From assembly GCA_964388175.1 (NCBI GenBank), contig CAYLYS010000003.1:6870-70869 (forward strand): a stretch of DNA of 64,000 bases, read 5' to 3'. Position 1 is the stretch's first letter, and every line of letters starts with the position of its first letter. The translations under genes were made by a program, and so were the position numbers. The DNA comes from an uncultured Chromatiales bacterium. GTDB lineage: Bacteria > Pseudomonadota > Gammaproteobacteria > SZUA-140. The notes beneath the pieces were generated by a model. That model did no database searches, was not told the origin of the DNA, and saw nothing but the letters and a program-made list of their open reading frames with translations. Below are positions 50,972 through 57,945 of the stretch, in pieces.

Positions 50972-51374
50972 AGCGGGGCGGTAGGTATACCAGGGTTCCT
51001 TGGCGCCGCGGCCGGGAACAGGCCAAGGGTCTGCCTGCAGAGCAAGCCGTTACTTCGAAGTTGCCAGAACGATTGCTATTTATGCAGGTTTCCTGTTGTT
51101 CTTAACGACAATCGCAATTTCCGTTGCAATATATGGGAAAATCCTTGCCATTAGGGGCGATAAACCGACCTACGGGAGGTTTGCAAAAATCCTGCTCTAT
51201 ACTGTGATGCTATACATCTCGCTTCCGTATATGCAGTTAGAGCTAAATGCATTCTATGGCCCTGCCGTATCCAAGGCGCCATCATTGTAGGCCGAAGAAT
51301 TGGGACGGTCATGCTCCGCTGATTGCTCGACACCAGCGCAAAGGAAGGACTTCCAAGCCACTAGAGGCGATACC

Positions 51375-51717
51375 GTATTTTGTGCCAACGCACCAGGAAT
51401 TGGTGGCGGGGTGGCTGCAGGATACGGACCGCAAGACCAAGCCGTTTCTGTTCCATCACGACGCGGTGAACAGCGTCAGCGAGGTGACGGGGCACAATGG
51501 CGGGACAACGCAAAGTGTCCTCTACCGATCATTCGGGCAGACGCAATCGACGACGGCAGCAGCCCGAACCGACTGAAGTACACCGGGCGAGAGGATGATG
51601 GGACGGGGCTCTATTACTATCGAACCCGGTACTGCTGGGTTTTAGGGCGGGGATCAATTTCTATGCCTATGCAGGGAATAATCCGATCAATGCCAATAAT
51701 CCCAATGGATTGGATAA
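51375..51717 (+). pseudogene. rhs fragment 1: YD-repeat end plus RHS core remnant, broken across three frames
   Basis: HQELVAGWLQDTD...FHHDAVNSVSEVTG..SVLYRSFGQ (frame A), SSPNRLKYTGREDDGTGLYYYRTRY (frame B), AGINFYAYAGNNPINANNPNGL (frame C). Relative to the intact copy at 52790-53010 there is a deletion of the YDPAIGRFVSEDPIRFK segment. Confidence 0.55.
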
Positions 51718-52152
51718 CTCAATAGTGTTTCATTCGGCGGAACTGCAGCAATCCTGCTTCTCGGAATAGGTGGAAATGTGAGCGTTGGCATTTCTGTTCC
51801 TGATGACTTGACTAATTGGCGTGGCTGCCGGGTATTCGGCGGTGCGCAAGCAAACCTAATGGCGGGCGGGGGTGGCTACTTGGGGTATGGTGTCAGCGCG
51901 GGAAAGGTCGAATCGGTTGGGCCATTGGATCCCAGTTTTAATTTGGATAATGGCTGGTATGCTGAGGCTGACGCAGGTATCGGGAGTGCGGCTATTGGTG
52001 CAAGCCTCCAAGGCCACGGAAAGCCTTTTAGTAGTTTGCCTTCTGGTGGAAGTGTCACTCCGCTTCCAAAGGTTGGCCAAGGCGCCGGCGTTTGGGTATC
52101 GCCGATAGGAACCTATGGTTCTGCGACTGCAGCATCATATACACATCGGTGA
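51718..52152 (+). CDS. Orphan rhs C-terminal tip CT1: Gly-rich, glycine-zipper-like putative toxin domain, out of frame with its core remnant
   Basis: …SFGGTAAILLLGIGGNVSVGISVPDDLTNWRGCRVFGGAQANLMAGGGGYLGYGVSAG…SATAASYTHR; reading frame opens right after the core NPNGL motif. Confidence 0.4.
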   Translation, partial: LNSVSFGGTAAILLLGIGGNVSVGISVPDDLTNWRGCRVFGGAQANLMAGGGGYLGYGVSAGKVESVGPLDPSFNLDNGWYAEADAGIGSAAIGASLQGHGKPFSSLPSGGSVTPLPKVGQGAGVWVSPIGTYGSATAASYTHR

Positions 52153-52543
52153 TGTCGTAGATGGCGTGACAGCGCTGTTCGGTGCTGTTGCCAGCTCTCC
52201 CGCGCAGAGTGCCGCAGCAAGCGGCGGGTTCCTTTATTTACCCGAACAAAGTAAACAACAACATGATGATTTCGGTATATTCAAAGTGACCAAGTATAGG
52301 AGCTTTGCTTCCTATTATGAGCTAGCGATTCTCCACGCATCCAAGTGGATTCTCACGGCTGTTTTATTTGTTTCTGCATTTATCTTAATCTTAGCGTGTA
52401 TTGATTTGATGGCGCCAATTTTCGCTGGCGCCTACGATTGGCGCACGGTCATGTGGGGAATCTTCATGATGATACTTTCTTACACAATTCGTCGCATGAT
52501 TGTTCGCCGATTGACATCAATCCGAAAAGAAACGAACTTCTGA
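52115..52543 (+). CDS. Putative immunity-like membrane ORF after CT1 (start uncertain; likely GTG/ATG within 52160-52420); contains a frameshifted echo of the conserved toxin tail (ASGGFLYLPEQSK)
   Basis: C-terminal part …KWILTAVLFVSAFILILACIDLMAPIFAGAYDWRTVMWGIFMMILSYTIRRMIVRRL has 2 TM helices. Confidence 0.3.
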   Translation: MVLRLQHHIHIGDVVDGVTALFGAVASSPAQSAAASGGFLYLPEQSKQQHDDFGIFKVTKYRSFASYYELAILHASKWILTAVLFVSAFILILACIDLMAPIFAGAYDWRTVMWGIFMMILSYTIRRMIVRRLTSIRKETNF

Positions 52544-52690
52544 CGAAGAGAACCTACCAGGGCTCGACCACCCGCTACGTCTACAACGCGGCGAATAGCG
52601 TTGGCACAACCACCTACACCTACGATGTGCTCTACTGCCTGACCGCCGTCAACCGTCCTGACACCGCCAACAACGAAGCCTATACTTTGG

Positions 52691-53563
52691 GTGCGCTGCC
52701 CCCGAACTTCGAACGCCCGCTACTTTACTACACTGCAAACACCAACCTGGAGCGCTACTTCCGGGGATCGAGCATCGACGAATTGGTGGCGGGGTGGCTG
52801 CAGGAGCAGCCCGAACCGATTGAAGTATACCGGGAGGGAGGACGACGGAACTGGGCTCTATTACTATCGCGCACGATACTATGATCCAGCGATAGGACGG
52901 TTCGTTTCGGAAGATCCAATCCGATTCAAAGCTGGCATAAATTTCTATGCCTATGTGACAAACAACCCGATTAACTATAATGATCCGACCGGAGAAATCG
53001 AGAACTGGCCAGGCGCGGTACGGCAAACTATAGGGATAATCGGGAATGCAGTTGGTGCTGTAGGTGGGCTTGTAACGAGTGGTGTAGGCGTGGTTCTCGT
53101 GGCCGCTCCCGAGCCCACCATGTTGAGCACGGCAACCGGAGTGCTTCTAATTCCTGCAGGGGGCTTCATGTATGGCTCCTCTGTGGATGGGATGAAGGAG
53201 AATTTCAATGCCCTGTTTGATAACATCTATGGAACTAGCACGCCATACGCGCCCGAGTTTAAAAATACCGTTACAAGTGGATTAGGTTTCAGCCCAGGCA
53301 ATCCTACTGTAAGCGGTATATATGACGCCGCCTCGTTCGCGGCCGGGATCCCGAGCGGGAGGATTGTAACTCAGCTGGGAAACTTACCATCAGCGCTTAG
53401 TACGGTTTCAGATATTGATGTCACTATAAGAGGGGTGGAATCTCTGATCGATTCATCGTCAACGATTTACGATTCGTTGTCACCCGGCTCGGCAAGTGGA
53501 GGTTATTTGCTGTACCCAAATAAACCAAACATGAATATGCTTCAAAGTGTGTATCAGAAATAG
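52691..53563 (+). CDS. Orphan rhs C-terminal fragment 2: intact RHS core end (NRLKYTGREDDGTGLYYYRARYYDPAIGRFVSEDPIRFKAGINFYAYVTNNPINYNDPTGE) fused in frame to a ~185-aa toxin domain (CT2) ending in the conserved tail
   Basis: Classic RHS core signature followed by IENWPGAVRQTIGIIGNAVGAVGGLVTSGVGVVLVA... and ...SASGGYLLYPNKPNMNMLQSVYQK*. The upstream YD-repeat piece (52540-52810, ...TYTYDVLYCLTAVNRPDTANNEAYT...DELVAGWLQ) is in another frame, so the module is N-terminally truncated and frameshifted. Confidence 0.6.
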   Translation: MRCPRTSNARYFTTLQTPTWSATSGDRASTNWWRGGCRSSPNRLKYTGREDDGTGLYYYRARYYDPAIGRFVSEDPIRFKAGINFYAYVTNNPINYNDPTGEIENWPGAVRQTIGIIGNAVGAVGGLVTSGVGVVLVAAPEPTMLSTATGVLLIPAGGFMYGSSVDGMKENFNALFDNIYGTSTPYAPEFKNTVTSGLGFSPGNPTVSGIYDAASFAAGIPSGRIVTQLGNLPSALSTVSDIDVTIRGVESLIDSSSTIYDSLSPGSASGGYLLYPNKPNMNMLQSVYQK

Positions 53564-53574
53564 CGGACGAGAGT

Positions 53575-53763
53575 ATGTTATACGGACTGTTAACATTGTT
53601 AATAGGTATTCTGATGTTGCTTTTTTCTCTGAATATTCTAACGCTGAAGAGTGCTCAGGCGGGAGATTTATGTGTGCTAAAGGAAAGATATGGCGCTTTT
53701 TTTAAGGTGCTTGGCGCGCTGATGATTGCCCACGCTCTGTTTACTCTTATAGGGGTTTACTAA
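53575..53763 (+). CDS. Putative immunity protein for CT2 (62 aa, 2 TM)
   Basis: MLYGLLTLLIGILMLLFSLNILTLKSAQAGDLCVLKERYGAFFKVLGALMIAHALFTLIGVY; starts 12 nt after the CT2 stop. Confidence 0.45.
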   Translation: MLYGLLTLLIGILMLLFSLNILTLKSAQAGDLCVLKERYGAFFKVLGALMIAHALFTLIGVY

Positions 53764-53816: not shown

Positions 53817-54053
53817 GTGTATTTTTATCAGGTAAATAAAAAGAAGAAATTAAATAGAGGAAATAGGTGTGCTCGTTGCGGAGAGCATTTGGAGATGGGG
53901 AAATCTGTAAGGATGTCGGCATCGTATCGAGCATTTCTATTCTGCAGCGCTTGCGCGGAGCGAGAAAAACAAGCTGATGGAATTTTCTTTCTTGTATCAG
54001 CCTCGGCGGTTGCTGCATTGGTTGTGGTTTATTTGTGGAGCTTGCAAGAATAG
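53817..54053 (+). CDS. Small zinc-ribbon (CxxC...CxxC) protein with C-terminal TM helix
   Basis: RCARCGEHLEMG...FCSACAEREK...IFFLVSASAVAALVVVYLWSL; GTG start. Confidence 0.35.
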   Translation: MYFYQVNKKKKLNRGNRCARCGEHLEMGKSVRMSASYRAFLFCSACAEREKQADGIFFLVSASAVAALVVVYLWSLQE

Positions 54054-54074: not shown

Positions 54075-54150
54075 TCCTATGCTGTAGCAGCATAGCTTGA
54101 GCCCCTGTGTACTGCTGACCTGTGTACTGCCGATAGGCAATCTTCTATCG
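54075..54150 (+). repeat. Cassette-junction repeat, copy A (contains the inverted repeat CTATGCTG-TAG-CAGCATAG)
   Basis: ~75-bp segment nearly identical to 56234-56300; each copy lies just downstream of an immunity-like ORF and upstream of an rhs remnant. Confidence 0.6.
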
Positions 54151-54250
54151 ATTCCGTTCGAGCTTCCAAAATTTCAGCGCGAGTGGAGGATTCCTTGTTT
54201 ACCCTAACAAGTCAAATATAAACATGATGCAGTCAGTGTATAGGAAATGA
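54139..54250 (+). pseudogene. Remnant of a toxin C-terminus retaining only the conserved tail (…FQNFSASGGFLVYPNKSNINMMQSVYRK*)
   Basis: 37-codon open frame starting after TAG within the junction repeat; tail motif matches CT2 and CT3. Confidence 0.45.
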
Positions 54251-54585
54251 ATACCTTTATCTCGATCGTTAGGCGCGTTGCTTTGTGTGTTGTGTTTTCT
54301 TTGTTTTGTGGGTATGCATTTCTATCAGTAGAATCTCTAGTTTGTGGTTCATCCGGCGGAGGTTCTTCTGCGGGTGGTGGGGCCGCAGTGGGTATGCTCG
54401 CCATCGCTGTGGCTATCGGAATGTTCGTGGTTACGTTTCTACCTTTGGCTATTGTTGATGTTGGGAGAGGGGCTGGCGTCTGGCGCCTTTCGTTGACTTT
54501 CAAGAGAGAGTTTATTTTTGTGTTGGGAGTTTTTTTGGCAATTCAGATTGTTTTAGGCGGCGTGTTGTTTTTTAAAGGATGTTAA
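54247..54585 (+). CDS. Putative immunity membrane protein (112 aa, 3 TM), ATGA-coupled to the tail remnant
   Basis: MNTFISIVRRVALCVVFSLFCGYAFLSVESLVCGSSGGGSSAGGGAAVGMLAIAVAIGMFVVTFLPLAIV... Confidence 0.45.
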   Translation: MNTFISIVRRVALCVVFSLFCGYAFLSVESLVCGSSGGGSSAGGGAAVGMLAIAVAIGMFVVTFLPLAIVDVGRGAGVWRLSLTFKREFIFVLGVFLAIQIVLGGVLFFKGC

Positions 54586-54996: not shown

Positions 54997-55306
54997 CCTT
55001 GTAGTCATGATGGCTGGGGTGGCGTTCCTAGTCTTGGGTGCGCACTCTATTTTTTTCGATATGCCTGGTCTAGGTATGGTGGTGTGATCGATTTTGGCGA
55101 CGATCATATAGTAGGGGGGGTAATCAGGGTCGTTATTGGGTTGATACTAATTTACTTCGCAAGGACCGCTAAGTGACAATCAACAGAGAATCCGGATATC
55201 TGTAGCATGCAGATTTCACGCCCGCTTCGCACTAAGTACAAACTACTATTGCCTGCTGCGGAATGCCGCATAGACCGCGAACACCGCAACAGAAATCGAC
55301 GGCGAT

Positions 55307-55534: not shown

Positions 55535-55537
55535 ATT

Positions 55538-55906
55538 GTGGCTATGCATGGTGTGTTTGATGACACGTTCCGCGACATACCATCGAATATTGTAAAGATG
55601 CAGGAGGTCGGCATCTTCGCCAGAGACTTTGACGACGCCGTAGGGAATGCGCAAGAGTTTTCCAATGTTACGAACCAGAATGCAATTCCATATTGGCCTC
55701 TTGGGCCAAACAGCAACTCATACGCTTCGACGTTTGTCGAGAGCTTTACTGGTTCTCGTCCCAACCCCATTGTGAGCGCGCCAGGGTCAGATATGGGCCG
55801 GCCTTCGTCAGCACTGCCCTACTCGCCAGCGCCGGCTTCCGGCGGCTTCCTCATATATCCAAACAAGCCGAATACCAATTTTTTGCAATGGGTCTACGCG
55901 AAATAA
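55538..55906 (+). CDS. Orphan toxin domain CT3 (122 aa) ending in the conserved tail
   Basis: GTG start one codon after TGA in the same frame as the upstream fragment; …NAIPYWPLGPNSNSYASTFVESFTG…PASGGFLIYPNKPNTNFLQWVYAK*. Confidence 0.45.
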   Translation: MAMHGVFDDTFRDIPSNIVKMQEVGIFARDFDDAVGNAQEFSNVTNQNAIPYWPLGPNSNSYASTFVESFTGSRPNPIVSAPGSDMGRPSSALPYSPAPASGGFLIYPNKPNTNFLQWVYAK

Positions 55907-55921: not shown

Positions 55922-56251
55922 ATGATTGACGTGAAGCGGTTCATGCGCGTGATCATGTTAGCTTGCATAGCAATGATTACGAGTGCCTGCGAGGGGAGCT
56001 GTGAATCAATGGCAAAACAAGTAAGAGCTAACCTTGAGGAACAGCTTCACGTCGGGGACAGTAGGGAAAAAATTGAAGCTGTTCTGCAAAGCATTGGAAT
56101 ACGATATTCCTACGACGAGTTCTCTAATCGCTATCAAAGTACGGTTCGGGAGGAGTGCGGAAAATTTGAAGCTGTCAGCGTGTATGTAAATCTTGACGAT
56201 CAAGGCCGGCTGTCAGCCATTGAGGTGTTTAATTCCTATACCTGGCTGTAG
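55922..56251 (+). CDS. Putative lipoprotein immunity protein for CT3 (109 aa)
   Basis: MIDVKRFMRVIMLACIAMITSAC lipobox-like signal, then soluble domain; starts 16 nt after the CT3 stop. Confidence 0.45.
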   Translation: MIDVKRFMRVIMLACIAMITSACEGSCESMAKQVRANLEEQLHVGDSREKIEAVLQSIGIRYSYDEFSNRYQSTVREECGKFEAVSVYVNLDDQGRLSAIEVFNSYTWL

Positions 56252-56300
56252 CAGCATAGATTGAAAGCCCGATCCCTGCCGATAGACATCTTCTACTGAC
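56234..56300 (+). repeat. Cassette-junction repeat, copy B
   Basis: Matches 54075-54150 (gctgtagcagcatag…gccc…tgccgatag.c.atcttcta…); an additional shared segment g.gatgccgcatagac…gc.gcaac at 55262-55300 and 56310-56343. Confidence 0.6.
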
Positions 56301-56398
56301 TCCGGCTGTGGGATGCCGCATAGACAGTCAGCGCTGCAACTAAAAAGGCGAGGGCATAAACGGATTTCGCCACCCCGAGACCCTTCGTATCGCTCGGC

Positions 56399-56824
56399 TT
56401 GATGGTTATCGACCAAAACAGCCTGACCATCGCTACTCTGAATGCACCAAGAAGTGTTCAGTTCGAGGCCGAGGACTCCGTATACACGGTGATAGTGACC
56501 GGCATTTCGGGAGGATCTCTTGGGTTCTTCGGACTGAATGTCACAGGGTCCGTATTTCCAATCACCAACTATATCTACGACGGAGTCTACCGTCTGACCG
56601 CGGCAGACCGGCCCGCCACGGCCAACGATGAAGCTTTCACCTATGAAAGGCGAGAATTGACGCTTCAGGTTAGCGCCGGACGGCGGGCAGGCGAGGAGGG
56701 GAAGGCGGTCGAAATCGCTTTCTTGGATTTGGGCGTTGCAGAGGGATATGGCAGACACTTGGCGGCCACACTGGGCCGCGGACGGCAAATAGGAGCGAGG
56801 ATCGCCAGCGGGATAGTGTCTTGA
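56399..56824 (+). pseudogene. rhs fragment 4: YD-repeat end region (NYIYDGVYRLTAADRPATANDEAFTYE) without a downstream core
   Basis: Paralogous to 52600-52700 (TYTYDVLYCLTAVNRPDTANNEAYT); truncated. Confidence 0.5.
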
Positions 56825-56897
56825 GCCGATGAGCCCTATTTGCTAGAATCAATATTAATCAAAGTGATTTATTTTGAATCAAGGCAGGAGGAATGCC

Positions 56898-57167
56898 ATG
56901 GCCAAAGCTGAGACTCGCGTGCTAACAGCGCATGTACCCGCTCCGCTGGCGGACAAGGTAGATCAGCTGGCCAGCCGCCTCGATCGTTCGCGCGGTTGGA
57001 TCATGAAGCAGGCCCTCGCTTCCTGGATCGCCCAGGAGGAAGAGCGCGACCGGCTGACACACGAAGCGCTGGACGACGTGGATGCCGGCCGCGTCATCGA
57101 TCACCAGGCCGTGCAGGCATGGGCGGACAGCTTGAGCACGGATCAGCCGCTGCCAGAGCCTCGCTGA
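56898..57167 (+). CDS. Ribbon-helix-helix antitoxin (ParD/CopG type)
   Basis: MAKAETRVLTAHVPAPLADKVDQLASRLDRSRGWIMKQALASWI…; AGGAGG SD; stop overlaps toxin start (TGATG). Confidence 0.7.
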   Translation: MAKAETRVLTAHVPAPLADKVDQLASRLDRSRGWIMKQALASWIAQEEERDRLTHEALDDVDAGRVIDHQAVQAWADSLSTDQPLPEPR

Positions 57168-57442
57168 TGGATTTGAAGTGGACCAGCAAGGCGCTTGCCG
57201 ACTTGGCACGCCTGCATGAATTCCTGGCCCCTGCAAACAAGCTTGCCGCCGCGCGGGCGGTACAGGCGCTGACCAAAGCGCCAACAGTTCTGCTGACCAA
57301 TCCACGTATCGGCGAGCAACTGTTCCAGTTCGAGCCGCGCGAAGTTCGGCGGATCTTGGTCGGGCAGTACGAGATGCGTTATGAGATTGCGGACGGAACT
57401 GTCTATGTGCTGCGGCTCTGGCATACCCGCGAGGAACGATAG
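57167..57442 (+). CDS. ParE/RelE-family toxin
   Basis: MDLKWTSKALADLARLHEFLA…RIGEQLFQFEPREVRRILVGQYEMRYEIADGTVYVLRLWHTREER. Confidence 0.75.
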   Translation: MDLKWTSKALADLARLHEFLAPANKLAAARAVQALTKAPTVLLTNPRIGEQLFQFEPREVRRILVGQYEMRYEIADGTVYVLRLWHTREER

Positions 57443-57858: not shown

Positions 57859-57945
57859 TGGTGCCGAGGAGAGGACTTGAACCTCCACGGGGTTTCCCCC
57901 ACTAGCACCTGAAGCTAGCGTGTCTACCAATTTCACCACCTCGGC
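57859..57945 (-). tRNA. tRNA-Leu (anticodon CAG), CCA encoded; its 3' end faces the island
   Basis: Reverse complement GCCGAGGTGGTGAAATTGGTAGACACGCTAGCTTCAGGTGCTAGTGGGGGAAACCCCGTGGAGGTTCAAGTCCTCTCCTCGGCACCA, near-identical in architecture to E. coli leuT-type tRNA. Confidence 0.9.

Follow-up and report, generated by a model that had tools for sequence, protein, structure and literature searches.

In the described Rhs/YD-repeat systems, such as the enterobacterial rhs loci and WapA, orphan cassettes consist of a core piece with a DPxG motif placed before a variable tip and followed directly by an immunity gene, and orphan arrays retain the core piece for recombination. The tip of these proteins reaches the stop codon and is variable throughout, and the polymorphic-toxin field expects the end of the protein to be its most variable part. 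Here, we describe an array of orphan Rhs cassettes in a 64,000-nucleotide stretch of an uncultured Chromatiales bacterium (contig CAYLYS010000003.1 of assembly GCA_964388175.1, positions 6,870 to 70,869), hereafter called the window, in which position 1 is the first letter of the stretch. The cassettes share the core and the DPxG boundary with the Rhs/WapA systems and have a putative immunity gene downstream, but differ from them in that every tip is capped by the same peptide of 23 residues, the tail, which makes for an unexpectedly constant end. They also differ in belonging to a clade predicted to be exported by Sec, and PAAR, VgrG or other type VI secretion domains were absent from the clade samples scanned.

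A constant module on polymorphic toxins that marks one delivery route is known from the MIX and FIX markers, which resemble the tail by function only. Such markers are N-terminal domains of at least 100 residues found in type VI secretion systems. As the title of a 2023 bioRxiv preprint (10.1101/2023.07.16.549128) has it, an N-terminal delivery domain reportedly defines a class of polymorphic type VI secretion system effectors in Enterobacterales. In contrast, the tail is a C-terminal 23-mer of a Sec-dependent system and is located behind the toxin. As for the Rhs clade, an outline of it dates from 2012, when Zhang et al. (PMC3482391) described RHS toxins with an inactive transglutaminase, which belong to the same family, with a signal peptide, a Cys-less transglutaminase, sometimes bacterial immunoglobulin (Ig) domains, RHS repeats and diverse toxins. 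In section 19 of that work, the class was assigned to export by Sec and the type II secretion system, and the inactive transglutaminase was proposed to bind peptides, perhaps anchoring the toxin. However, this section gives no conserved C-terminal tail, no split-gene form and no operon with the exosortase-family protein XrtM and a leucine-rich repeat (LRR) protein. The clade is thus known, whereas the tail seems to be undescribed.

A preliminary description of the window had reported three reading frames ending in the same peptide, and a frameshifted echo of it behind a further toxin body, CT1. All three frames are present, each with the peptide at its stop codon: the CT2 open reading frame (ORF, 52691-53563) ends in SASGGYLLYPNKPNMNMLQSVYQK, a stand-alone remnant ends in SASGGFLVYPNKSNINMMQSVYRK (stop at 54250), and CT3 ends in PASGGFLIYPNKPNTNFLQWVYAK (ORF 55538-55906). 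The count, however, is four. The frameshift behind CT1 is real, but what follows is a complete fourth copy at 52217-52289, with ASGGFL in one frame (52217-52234) and IYPNKVNNNMMISVYSK, up to the stop, in the next (52236-52289). When the window is searched with a profile of the tail, the four copies score 66, 60, 60 and 39 bits, the three best-scoring ones having been part of the profile and the CT1 copy not; apart from the half of this copy that lies in another frame, no unrelated segment in the six-frame translation of the 64 kb scores above 5.9 bits.

With regard to the three intact copies, the invariant fraction of first, second and third codon positions is 0.65, 0.78 and 0.09, respectively, and each pair differs at 10-13 codons synonymously and at 6-7 non-synonymously. 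The 69-nt flanks on either side of these copies show 19-33% ungapped identity, as expected for random sequences. Since third positions vary and the flanks are random, conservation operates at the peptide level and is confined to the tail, as had been proposed; the codon data indicate that purifying selection acts on the tail peptide. The suggestion made at the same time, namely a DNA-level homology patch that would guide cassette recombination at the 3' end, has in its favour that the tail bounds the cassette on its 3' side as the core does on its 5' side. Yet nucleotide identity over all six pairs of the four copies is only 58-70%, the longest exact shared runs measure 5-9 nt, third positions are invariant at only 9%, synonymous sites are saturated, and a crossover at the tail would part toxin and immunity gene. 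It is the 5' core that provides the real homology for recombination, because the repeats of the second Rhs fragment of the array match those of the first over 26 nt at 100% and over 76 nt at 84% identity. A patch function of the tail is consequently extremely unlikely.

The tail consensus, of about 23 residues, reads A-x-GG-F-L-L-YPNKPNTN-x-M-Q-S-VY-x-K, and the logo derived from 221 distinct tails is A-[ASGN]-G-G-[FY]-[LV]-[LI]-Y-P-N-K-[PSA]-N-[TN]-N-[MQ]-[MLI]-[QR]-[SQ]-V-Y-[SAR]-K. These 221 tails are basic, with a mean net charge of +2.4 and no acidic residue in 88% of them, and the 30 residues preceding the tail abound in Ser, Gly and Ala. A word-indexed search with the tail profile returned 20 short proteins, all with the same terminal peptide, and when 1.84 billion cluster representatives were searched exhaustively with HMMER, 513 matched at E<=1e-3, 154 of them at E<=1e-10, the proteins being 43-2371 residues long. 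The extreme C-terminal position noted in the window holds in nearly all cases: the final Lys is the exact protein end in 135 of 149 proteins and lies one residue further in from the end in 11 more, and it is the end of 205 of the 221 distinct tails. In a scan of one genome per species, the motif was found in 29 loci, distributed over Beta- and Gammaproteobacteria, Desulfobacterota, Nitrospirota, Nitrospinota and a few metagenome-assembled genomes (MAGs) of other phyla, which makes the clade widespread in environmental bacteria.

Pfam and NCBIfam scans of the tips, of the putative immunity ORFs and of 135 tail-bearing proteins gave no match over the tail. In the PDB, the sole match of a profile search was a chance similarity of 13 residues to ephrin-B3 (E=0.08). 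Full-text literature searches for the motif strings retrieved no paper, and searches on XrtM, on exosortase with RHS and on DUF6531 retrieved no description of this system. Neither the tail nor a tie of the clade to XrtM and the LRR protein was thus found in any curated model, structure or paper.

The toxins that carry the tail are highly diverse, some being nucleases and others peptidoglycan enzymes or membrane toxins. Of the tail-bearing proteins scanned, no more than a minority match a Pfam toxin family; among the 135, Ntox44 was found nine times and DUF5675 twice, whereas Tox-GHH, GH-E, Tox-REase-7, SLT, Peptidase_M10, the Tlde1 domain and others occur once each. The only delivery-related domains in these 135 proteins are RHS repeats, DUF6531, Transglut_core and FG-GAP, with no PAAR, CdiA/haemagglutinin, LXG or other delivery domain. 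An Rhs-associated core is present in 51 of them, the rest being mostly short fragments. When 186 tips were delimited by the core motif on one side and the tail on the other, they fell into 71 BLAST clusters, with a distance from DPxG to the tail of 135-224 residues (median 187). By this clustering, the tail sits on at least 71 unrelated toxin families. The three tips of the window belong to separate clusters, each with relatives on full-length Rhs proteins, so that the claim that different toxin domains share one tail holds well beyond this locus: the CT2 family has 13 members, including the full-length Rhs of Denitromonas iodatirespirans (P0185), the CT3 family has 10, and CT1 groups with an orphan from a Sulfuriferula MAG. 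Within the CT3 family, toxin and tail are set apart by a spacer that ranges from about 0 to 35 residues, and the tail is therefore a module of its own on a flexible tether and does not form part of any toxin fold.

The same data dispose of the most trivial reading, in which the tail would be a recent duplication or the ordinary C-terminus of one toxin family. All four window copies do lie within 3.7 kb, but the sequence upstream of them is unrelated, the three tips are in different families, 71 tip clusters carry the tail, and many Pfam toxin families bear it without any Pfam or NCBIfam toxin model covering it. Hence, the tail does not simply terminate one known toxin family, and near-identity at the nucleotide level is lacking. 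Codon data and tip diversity contradict this reading as they do the homology patch, and we attach practically no probability to it.

The toxin of CT2 merits a closer look. Its sequence without the tail has no match at E<=1e-3 among 5.8 billion proteins. In an AlphaFold2 model, helices at residues 4-36 and 42-78 are predicted with a predicted local distance difference test (pLDDT) score of about 75, while the remainder, including the tail, is of low confidence and the tail does not pack on the toxin, in agreement, within the limits of the model, with a separate module; the model was too poor for a fold search. The start of the toxin (window 52997-53240, residues ~4-78 past the core boundary) comprises two glycine-rich hydrophobic helices with APEPT between them. 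The proteins encoded downstream of CT2 and of its Denitromonas homologue are both small, hydrophobic and reminiscent of two-span membrane proteins. Taken with the modelled helices, this suggests that CT2 might be a membrane-inserting toxin.

In the 29 scan loci, the tail caps full-length Rhs proteins of ~1550 or ~2400 residues as well as the orphans downstream of them. These proteins have an N-terminus resembling a Sec signal peptide (judged by eye in relatives), DUF6531 and the RHS shell. The ~2400-residue form carries in addition an N-terminal transglutaminase-like region, which in the ~1550-residue form is replaced by a separate upstream gene coding for ~900-1050 residues. Upstream or fused, the transglutaminase-like protein is found in all five distinct full-length tail-centred loci, and in every related full-length locus with enough flanking sequence. 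Its transglutaminase core (R-G-N/S-D-V-D-L-A) has Asp in place of the catalytic Cys, with the His and Asp positions retained and close to invariant; to judge by these residues, the transglutaminase-like protein of the clade is catalytically dead.

Among the 119 closest homologues of one full-length member (at least 40% identity to the query), the strict motif occurs in 84, and the remaining 35 mostly show recognisable variants, such as YPNQ, YPNM or a kept ...VY-x-K end; about nine of these 35 are cut short or contain frameshifts, and a clear tail is missing from no more than two proteins that look intact. In contrast, the tail is absent from Rhs proteins that are linked to XrtM and a transglutaminase but are only 25-27% identical in the shell. 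Since close homologues carry the tail and these distant relatives do not, it is the signature of one clade, and as far as these comparisons reach, it follows the Rhs/transglutaminase clade and not XrtM as such. The relatives form a distant second clade of fused transglutaminase-Rhs proteins (L042, 1464-8876; L088, 12736-20367; L093, 12694-20235; such labels are our locus numbers), with Ala at the position of the catalytic Cys and tips without a conserved tail; they adjoin XrtM and an LRR protein that bears the sorting signal described below.

The constant proximity of a papain-fold transglutaminase-like protein, together with the invariant A-x-G-G ahead of a hydrophobic stretch, could suggest a cleavable C-terminal propeptide, removed for example after Gly-Gly so as to activate or release the toxin, or keeping the toxin unfolded or inactive within the shell. 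However, the transglutaminase-like protein has lost its catalytic Cys (Asp here, Ala in the clade without tails), the operon contains no other conserved protease, and it is the VY-x-K end, not Gly-Gly, that is best preserved in degenerate tails. We regard such a propeptide as improbable.

The genomic surroundings of the full-length genes are conserved as well. In Methylomonas sp. 11b (L035, 5414-16712), D. iodatirespirans (L036, 3684-14952) and the Sulfuriferula MAG (L001, 5480-10195), an operon codes for the small exosortase homologue XrtM, an adjacent membrane protein of ~205 residues, a secreted, surface-anchored squalene-cyclase-like/LRR protein, a secreted protein of ~230 residues, the transglutaminase-like protein, Rhs and the immunity protein. 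The part comprising the LRR protein, the ~230-residue protein and XrtM was scored only where upstream sequence sufficed, and XrtM is present in most such loci. The XrtM model TIGR04300 scores 228 bits in Methylomonas, against a curated cutoff of 125, and remains below the cutoff in the other two species; the XrtM homologues of all three keep the Cys, Arg and His motifs. At the C-terminus of the LRR protein, VP-x-x-P is followed by a hydrophobic membrane helix and basic residues. This is a canonical tripartite signal, which makes the LRR protein the expected XrtM substrate.

The presence of an exosortase-family gene brings to mind the C-terminal sorting domains LPXTG, PEP-CTERM, PGF-CTERM, GlyGly-CTERM and MYXO-CTERM, which likewise are short signatures on unrelated secreted proteins and co-occur with such genes. 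Unlike these tripartite domains, the tail has no hydrophobic membrane segment and no Arg-rich cluster: about ten polar residues (T/N-N-x-M-Q-S-V-Y-x-K) follow YPNKPN, and instead of a basic cluster there is a single terminal Lys. The idea of a classic exosortase signal was rejected for the lack of a membrane segment and of an Arg cluster. A less canonical dependence on XrtM can still be conceived, in which the tail would be a sorting signal for XrtM and its membrane partner, or one of its invariant lysines an amine acceptor for the LRR protein. Pilin sortases use the lysine of the YPKN pilin motif, which the tail lysine may resemble.

What speaks for such an element is the co-occurrence of the two. 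XrtM homologues with intact catalytic motifs stand in the three operons described above, and in a reverse scan from XrtM in metagenomes, which gave 68 loci, the canonical tail was found in ten loci with close XrtM homologues; overall, at least ten metagenome loci of this kind carry it. Furthermore, the three loci of the clade devoid of XrtM have degenerate tails, with both lysines lost in two of them. Co-occurrence is nevertheless incomplete: XrtM belongs to the operon of many tail loci but is absent from some, and a tail-less Rhs of the other clade stands beside a 92%-identical XrtM (L042) and beside several distant ones. One locus with XrtM has a degenerate tail, the tail fails the tripartite definition for want of a transmembrane segment, and the operon already contains a canonical substrate, the LRR protein. 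We therefore hold it unlikely, by a wide measure, that the tail is an element dependent on XrtM. In a more specific variant, proposed by analogy, the tail would be the toxin's half of a covalent or closely coupled assembly step, with XrtM and its partner cleaving the VPxxP-CTERM of the LRR protein and ligating the LRR protein to an invariant lysine of a tail that protrudes from the shell on its flexible linker. Were this quite speculative and rather remote scheme true, any toxin housed in the shell would receive a receptor-binding LRR handle, an exosortase would for the first time have been proposed to use a protein acceptor, and Rhs toxins of two-membrane bacteria would be armed in a new way.

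Three loci inside the clade, from two lineages, provide natural experiments. They are without XrtM and its partner, and the Rhs tail is degenerate in all three. In two of them (L106 and L107, 4337-5817), a dockerin-like repeat forms the end of the LRR protein, and both tail lysines are lost; in the third (L108, 15229-24547), the end of this protein is an Ig-like domain, and the operon is followed by a complete type II secretion-like cluster. These cases point to the apparatus of the producer, and not to the target, as the probable site of tail action. As a side observation, a protein with a weak cohesin match is encoded upstream in one of the dockerin-type loci. An adjacent type II secretion cluster was also considered as a general partner and dismissed, being seen only in L108.

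The natural experiments bear on the possibility that the tail is a target-cell entry motif, which after release would bind a conserved component of the victim envelope and help any toxin to cross the membrane. CdiA-CT toxins and colicins have entry domains, and by analogy with them the tail, a short, linear and basic motif on a flexible linker, common to toxins that act in different compartments, might fulfil this need in a clade that has no type VI secretion domain and must use some entry route. On the other hand, tail decay coincides with changes in the operon of the producer, related Rhs clades manage without a tail, and since tips predicted to act in the periplasm (SLT, Tlde1) share it with nucleases acting in the cytoplasm, one step would have to serve both. 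An entry function is thus rather unlikely, though its probability is not negligible.

A constant peptide behind exchanged toxins must contact something constant, and the constants of the system are the shell and the accessory proteins of the clade. We tentatively favour a reading in which some conserved part of the apparatus recognises the tail as a clade-specific docking tag, and would put its chances a little below even. According to this proposal, the tail, which a flexible Ser/Gly-rich linker of variable length joins to each toxin tip, would be recognised in trans as a constant peptide by a conserved component of the apparatus. Any cassette recombined onto the shell could then be handled alike, be it for retention, orientation, release or export, and the need for the tag would explain why orphan cassettes retain the tail. 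The data show that the tail exists, is selected as a peptide, is terminal and modular, and is restricted to the clade with its operon context, whereas we infer both recognition in trans and the identity of the recogniser; a role in secretion, activation or processing, among those listed in the preliminary description, is the direction we favour.

Several points weigh against a docking tag. The interaction between the tail and a partner is a prediction from sequence. In an AlphaFold2 model of the Denitromonas Rhs that covers its last 1200 residues, the shell has pLDDT values above 90, whereas tip and tail remain at 20-28 and show no docking; this model was built from a 69-sequence alignment with the N-terminal 355 residues and the partner proteins omitted, so that it neither supports nor excludes docking. 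The P0230 locus has XrtM and the full accessory set, yet its tail is degenerate. Loci whose tails are degenerate have an equally conserved transglutaminase pocket, and the notion that the pocket tracks tail integrity was dropped for this reason. Finally, the co-occurrence counts come from a handful of lineages, uncorrected for phylogeny, and are too few and too clustered to decide.

As a constant peptide, the tail offers a handle on how Rhs toxins outside type VI secretion leave both the producer and their own shell. It can be mutated, it can be used as bait for a receptor, and it is a candidate portable tag for foreign cargo. As a highly specific search key of 23 residues, it also gives access to new families of toxins and immunity proteins. 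Moreover, it links these toxins to an operon with XrtM, for which we found no paper describing substrates or role.

A small ORF behind each tail had also been reported, and this holds for all four copies in the window, where, as for all cassette features below, genes are on the + strand. Putative immunity gene 1 (52287-52543, 85 residues), whose hydrophobic segments suggest two membrane spans, overlaps the stop of the CT1 tail by GTGA, and putative immunity gene 2 (53575-53763, 62 residues), for which two spans are likewise suggested, follows the CT2 tail after an 11-nt gap; the role of both is assigned from their position. Putative immunity gene 3 (54247-54585, 112 residues, a membrane protein) overlaps the stop of the stand-alone tail by ATGA, and putative immunity gene 4 (55922-56251, 109 residues), with an N-terminus resembling a signal peptide or that of a lipoprotein, begins after a 15-nt gap. 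A protein identical to that of gene 4 is encoded on a metagenome contig with the same neighbours. Elsewhere, an ORF starts between -13 and +97 nt from the tail stop in 65 of 69 non-redundant tails, with a 4-nt overlap in 21.

This tight arrangement, with the ORF starting at or overlapping the tail stop, is what could be put forward for the tail as a docking site for the cognate immunity protein, another of the functions initially considered. The downstream proteins, however, are mutually unrelated in sequence, in size (52-287 residues) and in predicted location, some being membrane proteins and some soluble, while the tail is constant, and a shared site would undermine specific immunity. We consider this function very unlikely.

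The cassettes lie in a low-GC island at 51.0-56.9 kb, with 41-56% G+C against 60-70% around it. A gene for a large chemotaxis-type sensor kinase is found on one side, and on the other a ribbon-helix-helix (RHH)/ParE pair, a tRNA-Leu gene and an RNase R gene. The RHH antitoxin/ParE-type toxin pair (56874-57442) and the tRNA-Leu(CAG) gene (57859-57945, minus strand) directly adjoin the island, a typical position for horizontally acquired DNA. There is no long ORF in the island and no long RHS ORF anywhere in the window, where only fragments occur; the shell gene, the accessory genes and the transglutaminase-like domain are likewise absent from the 64 kb. Searches by tblastn with full-length Rhs proteins reveal a series of disrupted Rhs 3' ends, each on the + strand. 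As there are only shell fragments and no long RHS ORF, the window cassettes are orphans and not a functional rhs gene, and we read the locus as a degraded array of four orphan cassettes of the tail-bearing clade. Membership in the clade is apparent from core fragments 63-88% identical to the Denitromonas P0185 protein, and from the match of CT2 and CT3 to tips of full-length members.

Module 1 (51337-51745) is a pseudogene fragment of the 3' Rhs shell and core, to which residues ~1170-1303 of P0185 and of P0200 from Thiobacillus denitrificans align by tblastn in frames 1, 3 and 2, with 63-88% identity to P0185. The CT1 toxin body (ORF, 51778-52152) is glycine-rich and separated by frameshifts from tail copy 1 (52217-52289; ASGGFL / IYPNKVNNNMMISVYSK and stop), which itself contains a 1-nt frameshift near 52235 and has a held-out profile score of 38.9 bits; an intact tail-bearing homologue is the Sulfuriferula orphan (L001, 8503-9687). 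Module 2 (52525-52830) consists of internally deleted Rhs shell fragments preceding CT2, with tblastn matches to family residues ~950-1109 and 1195-1228. The CT2 orphan ORF (52691-53563, 290 residues) comprises an Rhs-associated core, an NDPTGE boundary, a toxin with a predicted hydrophobic helical hairpin, a linker and tail copy 2 (53492-53563; ASGGYLLYPNKPNMNMLQSVYQK and stop), the feature noted first. The RHS repeat-associated core directly upstream of the CT2 tip reaches 86.3 bits with TIGR03696 (cutoff 32.5), core fragments being present in module 1 as well, and the DPxG-type boundary between core and tip reads ...NNPINYNDPTGE..., as in the 186 database tips.

The stand-alone remnant (54152-54250) holds the last linker residues and tail copy 3 (54179-54250; ASGGFLVYPNKSNINMMQSVYRK and stop), with no toxin and no start codon upstream. 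CT3 (55535-55906) is a 5'-truncated toxin ending in tail copy 4 (55835-55906; ASGGFLIYPNKPNTNFLQWVYAK and stop). Aligned with the full-length tips of P0038, P0234, P0240, P0171 and P0176, it keeps the last ~120 residues of a tip of ~215, ~95 N-terminal residues being gone, and it is 52% identical to P0176. A further Rhs shell fragment (56564-56650; tblastn match to family residues ~1052-1081, 56-62% identity) closes the island. To judge by these reading frames, CT1 is a frameshifted pseudogene, CT3 is truncated, the copy at 54179 is a tail alone, and only CT2 is possibly intact.

Two direct repeats were noticed near these cassettes. One lies near the ends of two of them (54081-54100 and 56245-56264; GCTGTAGCAGCATAG(C/A)TTGA, 95% identity), and the other, a stretch of 53 nt, is found upstream of CT3 and again beyond it (55243-55295 and 56293-56345, 72% identity); both may be shared junction remnants between cassettes. 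Finally, between putative immunity gene 2 and the bare tail, an ORF of 78 residues (53817-54053) codes for two CxxC pairs, with weak zinc-ribbon hits, and a C-terminal hydrophobic segment, and may represent either an orphan immunity gene or a spurious ORF.

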